The notes under the pieces: generated by a model | The model's input: only the letters and a program-made list of their open reading frames with translations | What the model was told of the DNA's origin: nothing | Database searches by the model: none | Position numbers and translations under genes: made by a program | Origin: a virus | Lineage: Duplodnaviria > Heunggongvirae > Uroviricota > Caudoviricetes | IMG/VR virus record: IMGVR_UViG_2537561691_000015 | Length of the DNA: 23,647 nt | Strand: one strand, 5' to 3' | Shown here: piece by piece, positions 4,070 to 16,562 of the stretch | How positions within the stretch are numbered: the stretch's first letter is position 1 | How the letters are laid out: each line of letters begins with the position of its first letter

Positions 4070-4273
4070 ATGGCAATTAAGCATTTTCCTGTCGTTCGTT
4101 TCACTTCCAGAGGACGTGAATACGAAGTCGACGAACGCCTGATTACCACAATCGACAAACACCGCTCAGAAAAGGATGCACACCACATCTATCTCACTGA
4201 CGGTACTTACTTCTGCGCCACTAATGTGGTGCGGGTGAATCTTATCCGACAGGTACAGGATCCACGCAAATGA
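4070..4273 (+). CDS. Hypothetical early-operon protein
   Basis: 67 aa; strong RBS CAGGAGGTG before ATG. Confidence 0.5.
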   Translation: MAIKHFPVVRFTSRGREYEVDERLITTIDKHRSEKDAHHIYLTDGTYFCATNVVRVNLIRQVQDPRK

Positions 4274-4488
4274 GCAGGAGAAGAATCACTCGCAAACATC
4301 ACCGCACACACCTGAATTCCTCAGCAACGCTAAAGGCACTTATTAAAAGCGAGATCGGTGATTTCTTCGCGGGAGTTGGCTCGCCAGGTGAACCAGAAAC
4401 ACCAGAAGCGATACAGCGTGAGCTCATGATACGCATAGATAGCACTTTTGATTTCTTCTACAGCATGCACGGAATTAAACAGAAATGA
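4270..4488 (+). CDS. Hypothetical early-operon protein
   Basis: 72 aa; ATGA overlap with upstream stop (translational coupling). Confidence 0.45.
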   Translation: MSRRRITRKHHRTHLNSSATLKALIKSEIGDFFAGVGSPGEPETPEAIQRELMIRIDSTFDFFYSMHGIKQK

Positions 4489-4596: not shown

Positions 4597-4986
4597 ATGA
4601 TTGACGCTCATGACTTCACAAGATGGGTGCGCACACAGGACACCCGTCTGGCTCCCGTTCTTCAGGGATTATTTGATCTCTACATCCGTAGTCGTGACAA
4701 CAGAGCACGCACTACAAAACCGGAGAATGCAGACACCCTTTATTTCACAGTAGACGACTGCTACCGCGTGGACTTAACACCACACGGGCTGGCGTTGCGC
4801 TGCCTGACACCGCATGGCGAATCACTGCTGGCGTATTACGACTCCCCGACCTCCGTATTTGCGGCAATGCTGGCGCATCACACTGCTGGCGGGTGTGCCT
4901 CGCTGAGTGAATACACCGCTGAATTTAACCGCCTTTCCACCCTCTTCTCGCAGGAGTGGCAGCGCGTGACGGGATACCAGCCATGA
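4597..4986 (+). CDS. Hypothetical early-operon protein immediately upstream of the replication gene
   Basis: 129 aa; its stop overlaps the ATG of gene A (ATGA). Confidence 0.5.
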   Translation: MIDAHDFTRWVRTQDTRLAPVLQGLFDLYIRSRDNRARTTKPENADTLYFTVDDCYRVDLTPHGLALRCLTPHGESLLAYYDSPTSVFAAMLAHHTAGGCASLSEYTAEFNRLSTLFSQEWQRVTGYQP

Positions 4987-7748
4987 GTGAGTTTGCATGG
5001 AGCTGGAATGAACCACGGCCAGCCATTGATCCGGACAGATTTACGGAGCGCAGGCAGGAAACTGAAACCGAGCTGCAACGCGCCATCCGTTACTACCTTG
5101 AGGCGGACAAAAAGGCCCGTAAAGAACAGGAAGCGAAGGAGGAAGCCTTTTTCGCACAATCCACCGTGGGTAAAAAACTCATGGCATCCCTTGAGGAAGC
5201 CGGACAGCGTGAAAAGCTGGCACAAAGCATCATCAGCAAGCGTCAGGCAACAGAACAAGACCCGGTGGCCCGTGCTTTTGCCACACTGAAGGTGCTTCCC
5301 GTTTATCTGCGTGAACCTCTGAGCCGCCACCTCTCTTTCCTGCGCAAAAAACAGGAATCCGATCGTCAGAAAGGCAAAAAGAGCTGGCAGGCTGAACGCT
5401 ACGCGCGCGGAACCCTGCGCAAAATATTCGTACGTCTGGACCGCACCGACAGCCGTTGGCTGACACCGGGTTATCGGTCCCTTGCCGGACGTGAACGCCT
5501 GGACGATTTGCTTTACCTGCCGCAACTCAACAAACACCAGATACAGACGCTGGCCACCATGACGGCGGCGATGTTCAGCAGCACCTTCGAAAAACTCTGC
5601 GATGGTTTTGGCGCGACCGATGGCGAGCTGACCATGGATGTAACGCTGAAGGCGTATCAGATGCTGGCCCGCATGGCGTTACACTTGCACGCCATGCCTC
5701 CGCATTATGACGCACTGACAACAGACAAAGACCGGAGGAACGAACCGGACACAGAACTGCTGCCGGGCGCAATCCTTCGCCTGACCTGTGCGGAATGGTG
5801 GAAACGCAAACTGTGGCTGTTACGTTGCGAGTGGAGAGAAGAACAACTCCGCGCCGCCTGTCTGGTTTCCAGAAAAACATCGCCCTATTTGAGCCAGGAC
5901 GCGTTAAGCGAGTTTCGCGCACAGCGCGAGAAAACACGCGATTTCCTGAAAAGTTTCATGCTGGAAAACGAAGACGGGTTCACGATTGATCTCGAGACGG
6001 TGTATTACGCGGGAGTAAGTAACCCGGTTCACCGTAAGGCAGAAATGATGGCCACCATGAAGGGGCTGGAACTTCTGGCCGAAGCCCGTGGCGACAAAGC
6101 GGTGTTTCTGACTGTCACCTGCCCGTCAAAATACCACGCCACAACAGAGAACGGTCATCCGAATCCCAAATGGAACGGGGCCACCATGCGCGACTCCAGC
6201 GATTACCTGGTTAACACGTTTTTTGCGGCGGTCCGCAAAAAACTGAACCGCGACGGTCTTCGCTGGTATGGCATCCGCACGGTGGAGCCTCACCATGACG
6301 GCACCGTGCACTGGCATATGATGGTCTTTGCTCATCCGGAAGAAATCGACAGCATCGTGGCCATCACCCGCGATATTGCCATTCAGGAAGACCGCCACGA
6401 GCTGGGCAATGATATTACTCCGCGCTTTAAGGCGGAGTATGTCGACGGCTCAAAAGGCACACCAACCAGCTATATCGCGACCTACATCGGAAAGAACCTG
6501 GACAGCCGCGCCGTGGATGGCATCGACCCGAAAACGGGCAAGCCACGCGTTGACCACGAAACCGGAAAATCAATGGCCGAGAGTGTGGAGCGCGCCATCG
6601 GCTGGGCGCGCCTTCATCGGGTCCGCCAGTTCCAGTTCTTTGGCATCCCCTCCCGTCAGGTGTGGCGTGAACTGCGCCGCCTTGCCAGCCAGATGGCACG
6701 CAACCCGGAAGGCCCGCAACGACTGAAAGATGACGCAATGGATGCGGTACTCGCTGCCGCCGATGCCGGGTGTTTTGCCACCTACATTGAAAAACAGGGC
6801 GGCGTACTTGTTCCACGCAAAGACTACCTGATTCGCACCGCCTACGACCTCGCAGATGAGCTGAATGATTACGGCGAACAGAGCGTACAGATTTACGGGA
6901 TCTGGTCACCACTCATCGGGGAATCCTCCCGTGTGTGCACGCATCCGGATAACTGGAAACTGGTAAGACGTAAACCGGAAACGGAAGACAGCGCCCGCGA
7001 AAATGGTTTTGACCTTCAGGGCGGCCCTGCCGCCCCTTGGACTCGTGGCAATAACTGTCCCCGTGTACAGGAAACGGACAACAACGGGACAGAACAGCCG
7101 GAAGAACGGCCAGCACCGTGGCCGCGGCTTCCTGAAGGCGTTGACGTGAATGAATGGATGCGCTCACTGAAACGGCACGAACGCCGGGCACTGATGCGTT
7201 CGCTGCGTGACAAACAGGCAAAAAACAGCAGTGATGAAATGCAGAACTGGACACAGAGCCGCAAACAGCCACAGCCTTTGCCTGATAACCACGAGTTACT
7301 CGCTAAAGAATGGCGGGAGGCTGCTGAATCTCTCGGCCTGCATATCGGTGAACAGCAGATGCAGCACCTGTTACGAGGCGGCAGTCTGTACGTTGGCGGC
7401 AGCATCATTGCACCGCAGGGATTTGAAATTGTACGCAAACAGGATACCCGCCCGGACAGCCGAATCACGCAGCTCTGGCAACGCCTGAGTCGTAATCACG
7501 GCGTAAGCAGCACGGAGATCCGCCATAACCCGGTCGCCAGCTATCTGGAACAACTAGAGGCATCAGACCCTGAAGCCGCCGCACGCCTGGCATCCACACT
7601 TCAGCAAGACCAGAACACCATGAAAACACCCGTTACCGTACTTTCTGACATGCTGCGCGCCATCCGCGACGCAGAGCACGCACAGAGAATCAGTGAAACC
7701 ACTAAACATGCTCGCAAAAAAATCAGTTTATTGCATCGAACACGATAG
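4983..7748 (+). CDS. A: Rolling-circle replication initiation endonuclease (P2 gpA family)
   Basis: 921 aa from ATG 4983 (the track's 4956 start is GTG); HUH-type motif 'VEPHHDGTVHWHMMVF' closely matches my recollection of P2 A; last gene of early operon as in P2. Confidence 0.9.
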   Translation: MSEFAWSWNEPRPAIDPDRFTERRQETETELQRAIRYYLEADKKARKEQEAKEEAFFAQSTVGKKLMASLEEAGQREKLAQSIISKRQATEQDPVARAFATLKVLPVYLREPLSRHLSFLRKKQESDRQKGKKSWQAERYARGTLRKIFVRLDRTDSRWLTPGYRSLAGRERLDDLLYLPQLNKHQIQTLATMTAAMFSSTFEKLCDGFGATDGELTMDVTLKAYQMLARMALHLHAMPPHYDALTTDKDRRNEPDTELLPGAILRLTCAEWWKRKLWLLRCEWREEQLRAACLVSRKTSPYLSQDALSEFRAQREKTRDFLKSFMLENEDGFTIDLETVYYAGVSNPVHRKAEMMATMKGLELLAEARGDKAVFLTVTCPSKYHATTENGHPNPKWNGATMRDSSDYLVNTFFAAVRKKLNRDGLRWYGIRTVEPHHDGTVHWHMMVFAHPEEIDSIVAITRDIAIQEDRHELGNDITPRFKAEYVDGSKGTPTSYIATYIGKNLDSRAVDGIDPKTGKPRVDHETGKSMAESVERAIGWARLHRVRQFQFFGIPSRQVWRELRRLASQMARNPEGPQRLKDDAMDAVLAAADAGCFATYIEKQGGVLVPRKDYLIRTAYDLADELNDYGEQSVQIYGIWSPLIGESSRVCTHPDNWKLVRRKPETEDSARENGFDLQGGPAAPWTRGNNCPRVQETDNNGTEQPEERPAPWPRLPEGVDVNEWMRSLKRHERRALMRSLRDKQAKNSSDEMQNWTQSRKQPQPLPDNHELLAKEWREAAESLGLHIGEQQMQHLLRGGSLYVGGSIIAPQGFEIVRKQDTRPDSRITQLWQRLSRNHGVSSTEIRHNPVASYLEQLEASDPEAAARLASTLQQDQNTMKTPVTVLSDMLRAIRDAEHAQRISETTKHARKKISLLHRTR

Positions 7749-7793: not shown

Positions 7794-8603
7794 TCAACCT
7801 ATCTTCTTATGAAGTAAAATTAATTTCTGTATTAATTTGGAATGAAACATTGATATATCAGAAATTCTTATTTCATTAGGCGAGTCTATATGATTGGAAA
7901 CTTCTTCCTCCAAGGAGTCACAAATACTTTCTAGATTTTCAATATCTGCATTTAATTCTGGAAAACTATTAAACAAATATAATGAATCCCGTAACTCTCC
8001 TAGTTTTGGTAAAAGAGTATTACTGAATACACTAAGAAACTCCTCTTCTGATAATGCCATGGAGTTTTTAAAACTTTGCACAACATCGAATGCCAACCCA
8101 TTAATTTTAGGCATAATTACTTCTCTTACCCAATACCCTTCATTAATAGCTTCTTTACGTTCTTTTCTATGTTGAACACAAGGAATAACAAAGGATGAAA
8201 CTAAAGCAAATAAAGAGATGCCAATAGAAATCCACTCTGGACCATTTTCCGGAACCTTTACAATATTATATATATCATAGGAATTTGGAACATCTTTGAA
8301 ATAATTAGCAAATAAATCTTTTTTGTTATCCCTTGCCAGAGATAACTTATGAAAGGTGTCGTTTGCCTTTTCACAAAACATCAAGCCATCATTCGGGTTT
8401 CCGGATAACAAAAACGGTGATGATATACCACTAAGTCCTGAATCGGAAATATAAAAAGGCGTGTTTGGATAAAGTGATTCATTACATTCAATGTTTTCTT
8501 TATTGGAAAAATCTGTCACAGAGCAAGCTGCGGGGAATATAAAAAAAATGACAGACAGCGCTGTCATTTTGATTTGAAAAATATTTTTAAAAGAAGGGAA
8601 CAT
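7794..8603 (-). CDS. Membrane protein with N-terminal signal peptide and one internal transmembrane helix (third gene of cargo operon)
   Basis: 269 aa; N-terminal 'KNIFQIKMTALSVIFFIFPAACS' signal-like; TM 'WISIGISLFALVSSFVIPCV'; AAGGAG RBS; overlaps upstream gene by 17 nt; AT-rich codon usage. Confidence 0.6.
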   Translation of the reverse strand: MFPSFKNIFQIKMTALSVIFFIFPAACSVTDFSNKENIECNESLYPNTPFYISDSGLSGISSPFLLSGNPNDGLMFCEKANDTFHKLSLARDNKKDLFANYFKDVPNSYDIYNIVKVPENGPEWISIGISLFALVSSFVIPCVQHRKERKEAINEGYWVREVIMPKINGLAFDVVQSFKNSMALSEEEFLSVFSNTLLPKLGELRDSLYLFNSFPELNADIENLESICDSLEEEVSNHIDSPNEIRISDISMFHSKLIQKLILLHKKIG

Positions 8604-8931
8604 TTTTATGTAAGCCTCTCCTTACAGCTCTATCTAATTCAGAAAGCATACCTTCTTTATATTCACGACCATCAAGTACAGTGCGACTATAAAATTCGCT
8701 AGGCGAAGAAAATTTCGGCAAAACCGTTTCAAGCATACCTAGAAAGTATGAGCTTGATACAACAATTCCCTTGGGGATCAATAGATATAATCTATCATTA
8801 CTGGTTGTGCAAAATTTCCCTATATTAAAGTAATCATAGGCCTGGCGCCCATTAGAACGTCCAGCAAAAAGTTTCTTGTTACTATCTTTTACTAACTTAT
8901 TGAAATCTATGGTGATGTCAGCCATTTTCAT
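8587..8931 (-). CDS. Small STAS-like (anti-sigma-antagonist / DUF4325-like) protein, second gene of cargo operon
   Basis: 114 aa; 'IDF...GIVVSSSYFLGMLETVL' resembles the SpoIIAA/STAS phospho-serine region; starts 10 nt after gene-1 stop with a GAGGA RBS; family call from memory only. Confidence 0.55.
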   Translation of the reverse strand: MKMADITIDFNKLVKDSNKKLFAGRSNGRQAYDYFNIGKFCTTSNDRLYLLIPKGIVVSSSYFLGMLETVLPKFSSPSEFYSRTVLDGREYKEGMLSELDRAVRRGLHKNVPFF

Positions 8932-8941
8932 GTACCTGTCC

Positions 8942-10321
8942 TCAAGTTCGCTGGGTGGCGTTTTCTGGTAGAGGAAAACGAATATTGATCATAACTCCAG
9001 GAAATCGAGCATCCTTCATACGCTTAAGATAGTTGCGATCCGGTTCAGATTCAAGCCCTACATCATTAAAAGGGTAAGTAAAAATGTCACTTTCCTCGTC
9101 ATTAACCAACCTTTGCTTTAATTTATATGATCCATCAAAGTTAATATGAGTACTACCAGATATTAAAGTCATTTTTATCCCACCTTTAATATCTCTTCCC
9201 ATTTTTTTAAGATTATCATGCATATCTTGAAATAACTTCAATAATTCAATTGTTCCGGTGCCAGAACTGTCAGTTTCTTTCTCGTTTTTACAACTCACCC
9301 GCCCTTGCAAGGCCGCTACTGTTGTTAATCCTTCCTTAAACATACCCTTTTTCTTAATATGCTTATTTATGTATGGATTAACTTGTTGACTTAATGAAAA
9401 ATGATCCTCAGGTAAATTATCAAAAGTTTCGCTGATAGTTTTCCCAAAATTGAAAACAGCCAACTCACATATGGGGTTTCGTACGTTATTATTAACAAAA
9501 CCTCTCAAATACCAGCGTGGGCGTTGCTCTAACCCACAATGCCGCTCCGCATTATCAAGGAGTTCCCCCATGCAGGAAGTTAAATGCTTTTCTGCCTCAT
9601 GTACAAGTTTTAAATTATGATCATTTAAGCATTCGTTTATGTATGCGGTAAATTTTTCAGCAGTGACATTTTTTCTGTCATGGGCAAAGGCAGAAGCATT
9701 CTCCTTTCCGATACTATCAGCAGAGAAGATTCGTTTCTTCGGATTCGCTTTTTTCGATGCTTCAGTAGAGTCCAGAACTTTACCTGGTGCAGCATTACTA
9801 ATCTCTTTTACAAGCCCGACATCCCTGATAATTTCAAGATACTGTTCATCTTTAGGGTAGATACCATTAATCTGAATCATCGTATCTTTGAAATTTATAT
9901 TACTTTGCCTTGCTGCTGTAAGAGCAACACCTAATAGACACTCAAGACCAAGACAGTGTTTTTTGTTTTTCTTGTAATCAAAAATATATGATTTCCATTT
10001 ACCTCTTGCAATTAATTTTGTGGCTGCACTAATAAATAGCAGAGATTTCTCTGGATTGTCATATAAGTCAAAATATTTAGGTATTAATATCTTCTCTGCG
10101 TCACGACGAAGAATTGATGAGTCATACTCTTTTATAATCGATATATTTTCAATGAACGTAGCGACTTGGTTTTGGACAGGAGTTGTTTCATCGGAAAAAC
10201 GAAGACTACCATTTTTCTCTTGCGCAGGCTTTTTTTTCTTAGCTCTCTCAACGCTACGAAGAAATCGCAACCATCCACGTAAAAAGGTTCTTTTAGAATC
10301 TTCTTTATTGATTTTTTTCAT
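8942..10321 (-). CDS. GHKL/HATPase_c-like ATPase-domain protein (SpoIIAB/RsbW-type N-box), first gene of cargo operon
   Basis: 459 aa from ATG 10321 (the track's 10417 start is TTG and lies inside phased repeats); N-box-like 'GELLDNAERH' (E-x3-N-A-x2-H) and G2-like 'DSSGTGTIELL' in the C-terminal half; N-terminal ~230 aa basic region of unknown function; AT-rich. Confidence 0.6.
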   Translation of the reverse strand: MKKINKEDSKRTFLRGWLRFLRSVERAKKKKPAQEKNGSLRFSDETTPVQNQVATFIENISIIKEYDSSILRRDAEKILIPKYFDLYDNPEKSLLFISAATKLIARGKWKSYIFDYKKNKKHCLGLECLLGVALTAARQSNINFKDTMIQINGIYPKDEQYLEIIRDVGLVKEISNAAPGKVLDSTEASKKANPKKRIFSADSIGKENASAFAHDRKNVTAEKFTAYINECLNDHNLKLVHEAEKHLTSCMGELLDNAERHCGLEQRPRWYLRGFVNNNVRNPICELAVFNFGKTISETFDNLPEDHFSLSQQVNPYINKHIKKKGMFKEGLTTVAALQGRVSCKNEKETDSSGTGTIELLKLFQDMHDNLKKMGRDIKGGIKMTLISGSTHINFDGSYKLKQRLVNDEESDIFTYPFNDVGLESEPDRNYLKRMKDARFPGVMINIRFPLPENATQRT

Positions 10322-10400
10322 TTCCAAATGTTCCTGCAAAGTTAACGTAGCCCACAAGGCGCTAAGTATACTTTCTGCTATATTTTTTTCACTATACAAA

Positions 10401-10427
10401 TGCACAATAGTGCACAAATTTGCACAA
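10401..10427. promoter_or_regulatory. Three helically phased direct repeats TGCACAA (starts 10401, 10411, 10421) upstream of the cargo operon; candidate operator/activator site
   Basis: Seen directly; exact 10-bp periodicity; on the operon strand they read TTGTGCA and sit just upstream of -10-like TATAGT and TATACT hexamers. Confidence 0.4.
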
Positions 10428-10801
10428 TTTTTTTGAACGACTTTTTGCCCTTCCGGCCCGCATGGTGGCTGGATCCGTCAAGGATCCGTGCGTGCACAAA
10501 AAAACGCATTTTTTCTGCGCGCAGGTGACGGGGGAACAGCCCGCGTTTCAGGGGGTAAATAGCATCCCCTGAACGATGTCGCAGCGACACAACAGAATGG
10601 CTGTATTTCTCACGCTGAGCGTGAAAAAGACGTGAGGGCTTTTGATTTGATGGGGTGAAAGGTAAGGCCGTCAAAATCGCACTGAGACGGCGAGAACATG
10701 CAGTCAACGCGGTGGGATTGCGTAAGAGTCTGACTGTCGATGATGGCAATCAGCAGGAAAGCGTCGTGAAATTATCTGACTGATACAGGAGCTGGAGAGT
10801 C

Positions 10802-10824
10802 GGGGCATAAATTTTTTATGCCCC
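10802..10824. terminator. Stable hairpin (10-bp stem GGGGCATAAA/TTTATGCCCC) just downstream of portal gene Q; putative terminator
   Basis: Perfect inverted repeat seen in sequence, about 30 nt past the Q stop on the minus strand; no clean U-tract, so function is uncertain. Confidence 0.35.
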
Positions 10825-10851
10825 GGCGAAGCAGCAGACAAGCGAAGCGCG

Positions 10852-11898
10852 TCAGGATGTGGGCTGGGTGTCTAACAGTGCGTAAGGGTTAAAGCGGATC
10901 ACCTCTTCGCCAAGCCAGTCATTGATGTGCTTCATGGCCTCCATGACGGGCATCAGCTCGTTAATTGCGTAAACCCGCGCGGCCTTCTCCACATCACCAA
11001 ACGCACTTTTTTCGCCCGGCATCGCCCCCATCAGTTGCGGCGGAACGCGGTGCGCAGCCAGCACATCATCACGGGATGCCGCCTTAACATTCATGAACTC
11101 ATCTTTTGCGGTGATCTGCTGGAACGGCAAAATTTGCACCCCTTCTTTGCCCCCGTTGGGCGCATGAATGAGCACGTTTTTAAATGCACCACCACCACGC
11201 GCACCCTGTAACGTTTCTTTCAGGGAGTCCATGCTTTCGCGGTTTACCTGCGCTGCACCGATGTAGATGATGCACCCGGCGTGGGATCCGTTGTCGTAGT
11301 ACAGTTTTCTGAACATGTCCGCCGAATGAGAAAGGCTGGCCGAGAGTAATGCGCCAAGATATTCCGGCATGCCGTAGATTTCCTGGTTAATATCCGGATT
11401 CATCAGGTGGCACACTTTGCCAGGGCGAAACTGGAACGCGTCCTTGCCATCCTGCACATACCACCATGATTCAAGATCGCTTCCGCGTCGCATGTATTTC
11501 GCCAGGGCGTGCCGTAATTTAAGCGGTTCGCCGAGCATATTGCTCCGAAGCTCAAGGAATGCGTTACCGAACACAAACCAGTCCAGCGCCAGCGCCGAGA
11601 AATCCTGCCGGGAAAGCAGCGGGTGCGGGATGTAGCAACCGAGTAATACATTGCGCTTAAAGTAAAGCGCAGACTGATGCCAGGACGTTTGCCGGGCGGC
11701 TCTTGCCAGACCGTACCAGTCCACCGGGGTTTCATACCACCGCCCGTTATCAGCACAGTACATATTGTCCAGCAGGTCATGCCCGGTCAGGCGATAAGGA
11801 CCATCAAATGTGAATGCACTGAGCGATGATTCTTTCCTGAGCGCATCAGCGAGATCAATGCGTGAACTCATGCGCACTTTTTTATTTTTTCTGCTCAT
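10852..11898 (-). CDS. Q: Portal protein (P2 gpQ-like)
   Basis: 348 aa (P2 Q about 344 aa as I recall); start overlaps P stop (ATGA); canonical position next to large terminase. Confidence 0.9.
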   Translation of the reverse strand: MSRKNKKVRMSSRIDLADALRKESSLSAFTFDGPYRLTGHDLLDNMYCADNGRWYETPVDWYGLARAARQTSWHQSALYFKRNVLLGCYIPHPLLSRQDFSALALDWFVFGNAFLELRSNMLGEPLKLRHALAKYMRRGSDLESWWYVQDGKDAFQFRPGKVCHLMNPDINQEIYGMPEYLGALLSASLSHSADMFRKLYYDNGSHAGCIIYIGAAQVNRESMDSLKETLQGARGGGAFKNVLIHAPNGGKEGVQILPFQQITAKDEFMNVKAASRDDVLAAHRVPPQLMGAMPGEKSAFGDVEKAARVYAINELMPVMEAMKHINDWLGEEVIRFNPYALLDTQPTS

Positions 11899-13649
11899 CA
11901 GAACTCCATAACCGTGAAACGCTCGTTTTCTCCTTCGCCGCCAATTGGTTCGTTAATGACAGCAAGCATGGTTGCCCACGCAAGGTCGCCGTGGCTGATC
12001 CCCCTCGCGCGGTCCGTTTCGTAAGTGATAAAGCCGCCCGGTGTTTTCACCTTACGCACGGCGTTAAAGGCCGCGACCAGCTCGCGTTCGGCGCGATCGT
12101 ATTCCCACCGCCCTGCACGCATTATTTGCAGCATTTTCAGTACCAGCGACCGTTTTGATGACAGCGTGAAGGTGTACGGAATAGCGGCAGGGAAAAACCG
12201 TTTCACTATCTGATAAACAGCCTCCCCGTTCCCGCCCGTCACATCAATGCCGATGTGTTCCACGTTGTAGTGACACGTGAACTCTTCAATGACTCTGGCC
12301 TGTTCTTCAAACTCCAGCCCCTGAACGCGTCGCGTCTCCACCGTTCGAAAACGGCCACCAGGAACAGCCGGAGGAACCACCACGGACACAGCGCCGCTGT
12401 CGCCGTTGCCACTGCTGCCGTTTGCGTCATACCCAATCCATACCGGGCGATTCCCCATCGGGCGGGGAGCAAAAGGTTTCCAGTCTTTCCAGTCGTCGTA
12501 TCCGTCAACACCACAGCCAATCAGGATATTCAGGTTAAATGCCGATTCCCCTTCGCGGACAAACTCACACATATAGAGATTGAGGAACTCGTCTTCGGTG
12601 TTTTCATCACGAATTTCATCAATATCGGTGTGTTTCCAGCCGTGATTAACCACATCTTCCAGCGTGACAATTTGCCGCCACGTCCGGTCAGGGCAGATAA
12701 GCCCGTTATGCAGCGTTTTCCAGTCCACAGAAAAACGCTGGCGTTTATGCGTGGCCTTTTTCTCGTTCCAGCGGTCGCCGTTCCAGTAGGCGTATGCCTC
12801 GTGCGTTTCGGTGGATGGCGTGGAGAAGTAGGTGCGCCGCAGTCCGCTGAGGGTTGCCATAGCGCCAGCCACCTTGCGCAGTTCAGCAAAGCGACTGACC
12901 CAGAAGAATTCATCAAAATAAAAATTGCCCGTATAGGACTGTGCCGACGCAGCAGAAGTGCCGAGAAAATGCAGCTCTGCGCCGTTGGAGAGGATGATTT
13001 TATCGCCCCCTTTCAGCTCCACATCAACTTCAGCCGCGGCCTTCTGAATAATGCTTTTAAACTGGAACGCCTGACGACGCGACGCAGACAAAAAAATCTG
13101 GTTACGCTGATAAGGTTGCACCACATCGTCACGCAGCGCCATCAGCAGTGCTTCCTGTGCAAAATACCAGGTCGCCCCAATCTGTCGGGATTTCAGGATC
13201 ATCCTGTTACGTATCCCGGCTTCCCTGCAAAGGGTCAGGGAGTCAAACCAGCCCCGCTGATGCCACTCCAGCCTGCTGATGATTTTTTCCCGCAGTGCGG
13301 CAATCTGTTCCGGCGTGAAATGATTTTTGAGTTTTTTCGCCCGGCCTTTCTTTCCTGCGGCCATCACATCCGGCTGGCCATCATGCAGCTTTTTAAGCTG
13401 CCGTGTCAGCAGGTCTATTTCCTTGAAGTCACCGCCTGTTTTATTCTGTTTTTCAGTAAGCTGGATGAGGCGCGCATCAATGGATTGCGTGACACGCTGC
13501 ACGGGTGGCGTTTCATCCCACTGGTCGCGTTTTTTCCACGCATAAATCGTGTTCGGGTTTATTCCCATCAGACGTGATATTTCTGCGGGCGGATAACCCT
13601 GCCAGTAAAGTTGTCGCGCACGCTGGCGCACAAAAGCGTCCTGAATCAT
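11898..13649 (-). CDS. P: Terminase large (ATPase) subunit (P2 gpP-like)
   Basis: 583 aa; GGGGGAG RBS; divergent from the O operon exactly as in P2. Confidence 0.9.
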   Translation of the reverse strand: MIQDAFVRQRARQLYWQGYPPAEISRLMGINPNTIYAWKKRDQWDETPPVQRVTQSIDARLIQLTEKQNKTGGDFKEIDLLTRQLKKLHDGQPDVMAAGKKGRAKKLKNHFTPEQIAALREKIISRLEWHQRGWFDSLTLCREAGIRNRMILKSRQIGATWYFAQEALLMALRDDVVQPYQRNQIFLSASRRQAFQFKSIIQKAAAEVDVELKGGDKIILSNGAELHFLGTSAASAQSYTGNFYFDEFFWVSRFAELRKVAGAMATLSGLRRTYFSTPSTETHEAYAYWNGDRWNEKKATHKRQRFSVDWKTLHNGLICPDRTWRQIVTLEDVVNHGWKHTDIDEIRDENTEDEFLNLYMCEFVREGESAFNLNILIGCGVDGYDDWKDWKPFAPRPMGNRPVWIGYDANGSSGNGDSGAVSVVVPPAVPGGRFRTVETRRVQGLEFEEQARVIEEFTCHYNVEHIGIDVTGGNGEAVYQIVKRFFPAAIPYTFTLSSKRSLVLKMLQIMRAGRWEYDRAERELVAAFNAVRKVKTPGGFITYETDRARGISHGDLAWATMLAVINEPIGGEGENERFTVMEF

Positions 13650-15761: not shown

Positions 15762-16562
15762 ATGATTACTCCTGCACAGCAACACTGGCAGAACGTGATG
15801 GCACAGCGCGCAGGCCGGGCGAATGAAGGCGTGGACCACGCCGCGCGTACCGCGCATGAAGAGGTGCTGTATCGTCTGCGTCTGGCACAGGCCCGACTTA
15901 AGGGGGTACAGGCCAGAAGCGCGAAAGCCGCCATCAAAAAAGAGTTGTTGCCGGACTTTTCCGGCTGGATTGAGGGAACGCTGGAGGCTGACGGCGGGCA
16001 GCAGGATGAAGTGATTGCCACGCTGATGGTGTGGGCAATTGACTGCGGCGATCTTCCGCTTGCGCTGCGTATTGGTGCGTATGTGGTCCGTCACAACCTC
16101 ATCATGCCGGATAACTTTGGCCGTACTGCTGCCACGGTACTGACCGAAGAAATCTGCAACCCGGTACTGACGCAGGCCGGGACGGATGCCGACGCGGATT
16201 TGTCCGCCTTTATCGAACCACTGGACACACTTTGGGAAATTGTCGCCAACCAGGATATGCCGGACGAAGTGCGAGCCAAATTATGCAAGGCGTGCGCCTT
16301 TGCCCGCCGTAGCCTGAGCGATGCGGACAGCATGGCCTCATCACTGAAGCTGCTGCGCGAAGCGATGCACCTGAACCCGAACGCAGGTGTGAAACGCGAG
16401 ATTGCAACCCTTTCCCGCGCTCTGAAAAAAGCCGATTCCGCAGCCGCACCAGAAGATGCCAGCACACCACAGGCGCAGAACGAAAGCAGCAAAAGTAAAA
16501 AGACAACGCGGAAGCCTGCAACACGAAAAACCACCGCGACGCAGAAGGCGAAGCGCGGTTAA
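15762..16562 (+). CDS. M: Terminase small/endonuclease subunit (P2 gpM-like)
   Basis: 266 aa; 'MPDEVRAKL' and overall layout match recalled P2 M; basic C-terminal tail. Confidence 0.85.
   Translation: MITPAQQHWQNVMAQRAGRANEGVDHAARTAHEEVLYRLRLAQARLKGVQARSAKAAIKKELLPDFSGWIEGTLEADGGQQDEVIATLMVWAIDCGDLPLALRIGAYVVRHNLIMPDNFGRTAATVLTEEICNPVLTQAGTDADADLSAFIEPLDTLWEIVANQDMPDEVRAKLCKACAFARRSLSDADSMASSLKLLREAMHLNPNAGVKREIATLSRALKKADSAAAPEDASTPQAQNESSKSKKTTRKPATRKTTATQKAKRG

Follow-up and report, generated by a model that had tools for sequence, protein, structure and literature searches.

P2-like phages and the satellite P4 carry a cos-adjacent defence hotspot (Rousset et al., PMC9122126), and a sequence element at the edge of such a hotspot may be part of the cargo or part of the phage. 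This question is raised by three short direct repeats at 10401-10427 of the DNA analyzed here, a stretch of 23,647 nucleotides referred to below as the window. A preliminary description had placed the repeats in the leader of a minus-strand cargo operon and had read them as a binding array for a regulator that couples expression of the operon to infection. The window is a P88-like (P2-family) Escherichia coli prophage, with 100% identity to prophages of E. coli EC21Z-147 and WS1933D, and its relevant genes are as follows.

1-1002: integrase
4956-7748: gpA replication protein (PF05840)
7794-8931, minus strand: second and third cargo genes, 114 and 269 aa (from the list of open reading frames)
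8942-10321, minus strand: first cargo gene, 459 aa, starting at ATG 10321
10852-11898, minus strand: gpQ portal (PF04860 and annotation of relatives)
11898-13649, minus strand: gpP large terminase (annotation of relatives)
15762-16562, plus strand: gpM terminase small subunit (PF05944, 9.6e-37; phrog_74, 6.6e-82)

The repeats lie between the gpA-side accessory region and gpQ, together with the G-rich core considered below, and this gene order is the same in relatives. Within the gpA-gpQ interval, 7794-10400 has a GC content of about 33-42%, against about 50-58% on either side. Three open reading frames of the mechanical list cross the repeats and the core (10020-10436, plus strand; 10378-10749, minus strand; 10420-10572, plus strand), and P88 and Chuche annotate small "hypothetical proteins" there (compare 4094-4385 of record L001); these frames are unlikely to be genes. 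An Rfam scan returned nothing except a sub-threshold match to the gyrA RNA at 10793-10846 on the plus strand, which scores 22 bits where the gathering score is 45 (E = 0.0097), falls immediately beyond the 3' end of gpQ and is probably due to chance.

The repeat array and the edge of the phage backbone

Three copies of TGCACAA do lie at exact 10-bp phasing on the plus strand, as first described, and the sequence of 10400-10434 is aTGCACAAtagTGCACAAattTGCACAAttttttt. A fourth copy on the same strand, at 10493-10499, had been overlooked; it starts exactly 72 bp after the third. The elements of the extended array are listed below.

10401-10407, plus strand: R1, TGCACAA; the leftmost base of the conserved backbone and the least conserved copy, exact in 136 of 170 loci
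10411-10417, plus strand: R2, TGCACAA; its CAA reads as TTG 10417 on the opposite strand; exact in 158 of 170 loci
10421-10434, plus strand: R3, TGCACAA followed by a T7 tract; exact in 167 of 170 loci and the most conserved part of the distal cluster
10471-10487, plus strand: GGATCC-N5-GGATCC direct repeat with two Dam GATC sites, within the 72-bp spacer; kept in P88-type relatives
10493-10504, plus strand: R4, TGCACAAAAAAA, 72 bp past R3 and 31 bp before the cosN core
10524-10542: putative cohesive-end core (cosN), GGTGACGGGGGAACAGCCC, placed by its similarity to the annotated P2 cosL/cosR, GGCGAGGCGGGGAAAGCAC, with predicted nick positions

The heptamer itself is not enriched, with 9 copies in the window against 5.4 expected, and it is the arrangement that stands out. 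Apart from R1-R3, the 23.6-kb window has no 7-mer that recurs exactly in three copies at a lag of 10 or 11, and no such triple arose in 5000 shuffles that kept composition within 300-bp blocks. All four same-strand copies are located within 125 bp of the core. As R1-R3 are spaced by one helical turn and R3 and R4 by about seven turns, the four copies lie on roughly one face of the helix. By inspection, the consensus sequences of Ogr/delta (TGT-N12-ACA), CRP, IHF and DnaA do not fit the array. Tandem repeats of 10-11 bp that contain TGCACAA were also observed in four unrelated viral contigs (L187, L192, L218 and L233), where neither a cos core nor a portal gene is nearby; they probably serve other phages as iterons or operators, and the word TGCACAA alone is thus not diagnostic.

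The left end of the array coincides with an abrupt end of homology. When 10250-10860 was compared with phage records by blastn, the matches began only at query positions 150-152, corresponding to 10399-10401 of the window, and homology breaks exactly at 10401 in comparisons with P88, Chuche, 520873, Shae_phiSM, 569R5 and the distant phiT5282H. In an alignment of nine phages, the sequences to the left of the T of R1 are unrelated, whereas those to its right are 93-97% identical. Enterobacter phage phiT5282H shows 73% identity over the matched stretch, yet keeps all four repeats and the G-rich core. The neighbors on the left are diverse: in P88, 520873, Shae_phiSM and 503458, the left genes next to gpA (parM, partition) are on the plus strand, and R1 of 520873 and 500465-2 is directly preceded by a terminator hairpin, GCGCCGATAAGGCGCTTTTTTT.

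This pattern extends to larger samples. Loci were surveyed in IMG/VR, 80 via portal alignment and 80 more via the repeat pattern, with some contigs in both sets. Clustering of 170 loci by the 40 bp to the left of R1 gave 58 unrelated clusters, against only 19 for the 40 bp to the right of R3, and many of the 58 left flanks are terminators of genes converging on the repeats. Among 5426 complete E. coli genomes, 1106 matched part of the query spanning the cargo-cos junction; because phage matches began at 10399-10401, this part was taken to be the cos segment. This particular cargo (at least 80% of the query matched) was found in only 23 E. coli genomes. The array is conserved backbone that begins exactly where cargo homology ends. 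It adjoins the promoter of the cargo operon, but it is not heritably part of the operon leader.

The cargo operon and its promoter

The longest open reading frame of the first cargo gene starts within the repeats, at TTG 10417, and the preliminary description had argued that this start is spurious and that the gene begins at ATG 10321. The corrected start is borne out by homologues of the first cargo protein, which are 443-467 aa long, and by alignment, in which Met1 of an Aeromonas homologue corresponds to residue 33 of the TTG-started frame, that is, to ATG 10321. The RefSeq/PGAP annotation starts the gene at the same ATG, and AGGAA is found 9 nt upstream of it. TTG 10417 is merely where the longest mechanical reading frame begins.

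It was also rightly noticed that, on the minus strand, the repeats are upstream of -10-like hexamers, namely TATAGT (10396-10391), TATAGC (10382-10377) and TATACT (10370-10365). The only promoter-like site found in a promoter scan includes the last of these.

10392-10365, minus strand: probable cargo-operon promoter, GTGAAA-16-TATACT, from a consensus scan; 9 bp left of R1

A block corresponding to the scanned promoter, TGAAAAAAA..ATA..GTATACT, is kept upstream of the operon in Aeromonas. The copy of the operon in Aeromonas dhakensis is located at a non-phage chromosomal site, and 9.4 kb of this chromosomal copy (L293) contain no TGCACAA or TTGTGCA. As the Aeromonas copy keeps the promoter block without the repeats, the promoter moves with the cargo and the repeats move with cos. 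The same three-gene operon was also observed in P2-type hotspots of Yersinia and other Enterobacteriaceae, and the set of three genes (459, 114 and 269 aa) was found in the loci L293, L294 and L296-L298.

The window resembles the P2/P4 hotspot in that a low-GC cargo of three genes (7794-10321) fills it and the variable DNA ends at cos. It differs from the hotspot as described by Rousset et al. in that the boundary is resolved to the base, at the left edge of R1, and in that the cargo is unannotated: its proteins had no match in Pfam, PADLOC or NCBIfam, and PHROGs returned only a family of unknown function. In the 459-aa protein we observed the GHKL-like motifs ELLDNAERH and DSSGTGTIEL. Its AlphaFold model has a pLDDT of 83, and the Foldseek hits of this model are weak (E of at least 0.07), the top-ranked matches being mostly histidine-kinase ATP-binding domains or SpoIIAB-type anti-sigma factors; the predicted structure thus bears a weak resemblance to the GHKL fold. 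The three-gene operon is a candidate for an undescribed defence system.

A comparable junction is present in P2 itself. The promoter of the P2 old gene (-35 TTGAAT, 17 bp, -10 TAAAAA; P2 33432-33460, corresponding to 2433-2461 of record L010) is interleaved with the TGCAT repeats that P2 carries at this place. In this old-tin promoter, which was deduced backwards from the annotated transcript starts, the -35 element TTGAAT overlaps R1 and is positioned between R1 and R2, just downstream of R2. Both phages have a leftward cargo promoter directly abutting the distal cos repeats; in P2 the deduced -35 element overlaps R1, whereas the promoter block of the window stops 9 bp short of the array and is passed on together with the cargo.

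The cos region in P2, 186, P4 and other clades

The cos sites of P2, 186 and P4 have 19-nt cohesive ends and a 55-bp conserved core, according to Ziermann and Calendar (1990) as quoted in later work (PMC5694545, PMC9594776), and the flanks outside this core give about 2000-fold higher cosmid transduction (PMC9594776). Inspection of the right ends of P2, 186 and P4 revealed the arrangement TGCAT-N7/8-TGCAT-N5-TGCAT, then, 72 bp further on from start to start, another TGCAT, and then 29 bp to the cohesive end; Erwinia phage ENT90 has the same layout. Across P2, 186, ENT90 and the satellites, this 3+1 layout has spacings of 10-13, 10 and 72 bp, about 30 bp to cosN, and the motif TGCAT. The window shares with the P2/186/P4 cos the position between the gpA-side hotspot and gpQ, the G-rich 19-nt core, the 3+1 layout, the 72-bp spacer and the location of the cos-proximal copy about 30 bp from the core. 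It differs in the motif (TGCACAA against TGCAT), in the R1-R2 spacing (10 bp against 12-13 bp) and in the spacer, which is unrelated in sequence to that of P2, 186 and P4 and carries GGATCC-N5-GGATCC. The cores differ as well, that of the window being identical to that of P2 at 13 of 19 positions by manual count, and the cohesive ends of this phage are predicted from its sequence. In aligned relatives, the core of the window is invariant. Judging from these sequence comparisons, the feature is probably the form that the P2-family cos site takes in P88-type phages.

The record of phage Chuche (L002) is without 7 bp, GGGAACA, that align to 10532-10538 of the window, within the predicted core. 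The gap probably arose during assembly, where the genome physically ends, and would then indirectly support the placement of cosN.

The strictness of the layout is apparent from a conservation profile, for which 149 cos regions were anchored on the proximal copy and reduced to 39 sequences less than 85% identical. The most informative positions are those of R1-R3 and the T tract, those of R4, where the peak is strongest, and those of the core, and the spacer drifts. In 17 of the 26 regions with a spacer less than 50% identical to that of the window, TGCA[CT] is present at exactly -72, and in the others it is mostly within 1 bp of this position. Spacings of 10, 10 and 72 bp are present in at least 45 loci. 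The 72-bp register of the repeats is with cosN and not with any promoter. Many Peduoviridae and P4-like satellites, among them P4, 186 and the loci L009, L045 and L058, also have a second, moderately conserved block with the consensus GGCGCGGTCTGAG about 25-40 bp to the left of their cos-proximal repeat, and the diverged equivalent of this block in the window is 10462-10470.

The satellites are informative with regard to function. P4 and P2 are reported to share the cos region only (PMC9122126, PMC9594776), and as cos is their sole shared DNA, the shared part is there for packaging. From 80 loci of P4-like satellites fetched with Psu, 74 were readable, and all 74 keep the 3+1 layout, even in satellites with 62-64% Psu identity and diverged spacers. 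No TGCACAA-type cos was found in satellites, since all Psu-anchored loci were of the TGCAT type and a scan with the repeat pattern for TGCACAA-type satellites returned only phages and the four unrelated arrays. What precedes the triple is, in 186, the terminator t95b, which ends a rightward operon, and, in P4, the 3' end of psu; a leftward operon is absent at both places. Because the array occurs beside unrelated cargoes and in 186 and P4, and is absent from the Aeromonas operon, its conserved function is therefore tied to cos and packaging and not to regulation of the operon.

In other clades, another motif takes the same place. Aeromonas phage LPM4 and Shewanella phage M16-3 have a triple repeat of the GGATC type in the distal position, and in LPM4 this distal GGATC differs from the cos-proximal TGCAT, so that one protein need not read both modules. 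A clade-specific motif at a constant place is, on these comparisons, the pattern that would be expected for a recognition motif co-evolving with a phage protein. Inspection of the 1.5 kb next to gpQ in Fels-2, the Ralstonia and Burkholderia phages, Pseudomonas phi3 and Klebsiella phi15.3 either did not locate cos or gave an uninformative region.

Proposed terminase recognition and its alternatives

Taken together, these observations make it likely that terminase recognizes the repeats as a cosB-like array within the packaging signal and, with this, that R1-R3 mark the fixed edge of the defence hotspot. R1-R3 would be the distal module of cos, forming a fixed-geometry array with R4 and the cosN core. 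An oligomer of terminase, most likely of gpM, would bind the repeats, the spacer with its T tract would be bent or wrapped, or else bridged by the oligomer, and the large subunit gpP would thereby be placed on cosN for the staggered cut. The cargo operon would bring its own promoter, which happens to abut the array. As an array needed by the phage sets the rightmost limit of recombinational replacement, the variable island would end exactly at R1. A landing pad of this kind would explain why the cargo island ends where it does and why satellites keep the array, why the length of the spacer is fixed and its sequence is not, and the approximately 2000-fold effect of the flanks (PMC9594776). By analogy, gpM is the most likely candidate for the protein that binds the TGCACAA repeats, and the gpM proteins of P2 and the window are 37% identical. 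Both binding and function are what we infer here, and the protein that binds could be either terminase subunit, gpM or gpP, or one of the host. Points against the packaging model are the degeneracy of R1 in one fifth of relatives, the unlike distal and proximal motifs of LPM4, and the position of the array away from the terminase genes. The published minimal cos of P2 and P4 is reportedly about 125 bp; R1-R3 are 99-123 bp away from cosN, and they may be at the limit of this minimal site or outside it and do no more than stimulate.

In phage lambda, the small terminase subunit gpNu1 uses the R sites of cosB (R3-I1-R2-R1). The array of the window is similar to cosB in having several copies of a short motif beside the nicking site, helical phasing, a bendable intervening segment and clade-specific motifs. 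This likeness is one of functional analogy only. The two also differ: cosN separates the array from gpQ/gpP, whereas lambda cosB is on the side of the terminase genes, and by inspection no IHF consensus is present in 10428-10492, whereas lambda cosB has an IHF site between its repeats. P2-family phages, in addition, are reported to package from circles rather than concatemers (PMC8537503). At most, the array may work like cosB, and it would not be a member of the lambda type.

Several other explanations have to be weighed against terminase recognition. The repeats would lie at about -43 to -69 from the likely transcription start, predicted near 10358 (predicted -35 at 10392-10387 and -10 at 10370-10365), which is a typical position for an activator, and the P2 old-tin promoter overlaps the equivalent R1; a regulator that couples expression of the cargo operon on the minus strand to infection could have its operator or activator sites there. 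We regard this reading as very unlikely, given that the repeats are absent from the Aeromonas operon while the promoter block is kept, that their left neighbors include at least 58 unrelated flanks, in many cases the terminator of a gene running towards them, and that the repeats persist after t95b in 186 and after psu in P4, where nothing is transcribed leftwards. Moreover, their 72-bp register is with cosN instead of the promoter, and they occur in 1106 E. coli genomes against 23 for the cargo. Of the original proposal, a protein-binding array is still probable, whereas its role as regulator of the cargo operon and the coupling to infection are not upheld, because repeats and operon are not co-inherited. 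There is somewhat more room, though the idea is still improbable, for a double use in which a packaging element, through terminase bound late in infection or as A/T-rich phased DNA resembling an UP element, also modulates the adjacent cargo promoter. The geometry in the window, the P2 -35 element TTGAAT between R1 and R2, and the A/T-rich adjoining DNA with its T7 tract agree with it, but this evidence is purely positional, and the junction in most relatives consists of converging genes or terminators. Any effect on a promoter is possible, but it cannot explain the conservation of the array.

Instead of being sequence-specific terminase sites, the repeats could have an architectural role in shaping cos, either by binding a nucleoid protein of the host or through intrinsic bending of the DNA. 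The TGCA core common to TGCAT and TGCACAA is compatible with a common host factor, the conserved T tract after R3 and the strict length of the spacer would also fit, and lambda cos uses the host protein IHF. Nonetheless, the consensus sequences of IHF, CRP and DnaA do not fit by inspection, the motif differs among clades on the same host E. coli (TGCAT in P2, 186 and P4; TGCACAA in the P88 type), and GGATC replaces it in other genera. A phage-encoded reader fits these differences better, which leaves the architectural reading with a low probability. Hardly any weight can be given to chance, to a role of the repeats as replication iterons or in partition, or to termination at a weak hairpin of R2-R3 with the T run. 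A terminator scan does flag GTGCACAAATTTGCAC followed by T7, and tandem arrays containing TGCACAA do occur in the unrelated viral contigs; the shuffles described above speak against chance, and the parM gene of the P88 type, which bears on a partition site, adjoins gpA and not the array. The replication origin of P2-family phages lies inside gene A. The hairpin was rejected, as it has 5 bp and -6.1 kcal/mol and is not conserved in the TGCAT clade, and so was an iteron or partition site, as no par genes were seen beside cos in P2, 186 and P4, yet the array is kept there.

With terminase recognition as the preferred reading, a tempting "regulatory array" is re-assigned to the phage backbone, and the start of the first cargo gene is corrected. 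In addition, the right edge of the P2-type defence hotspot is fixed to the base, which is useful for delimiting cargo automatically. None of the papers on P2 and P4 cos covered in full text names these repeats, and the explicit 3+1 repeat grammar may be under-described in that literature. The extended map of cos (R1-R3, the 72-bp spacer, R4 and cosN) could be of use in designing P2/P4-type cosmids and transducing particles as well as in predicting packaging compatibility between helpers and satellites.

We further propose, as a tentative idea that we hold to be rather doubtful as a whole, that the 3+1 array with its 72-bp spacer and clade-specific motifs is an unnamed cosB-like specificity determinant of packaging in Peduoviridae, and that terminase assembly on it could switch the adjacent defence genes. 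If this were true, the array would decide which helper packages which satellite or cosmid, and, as hotspot promoters abut or overlap the array (for example, that of P2 old), the late assembly of terminase could switch the neighboring defence genes.
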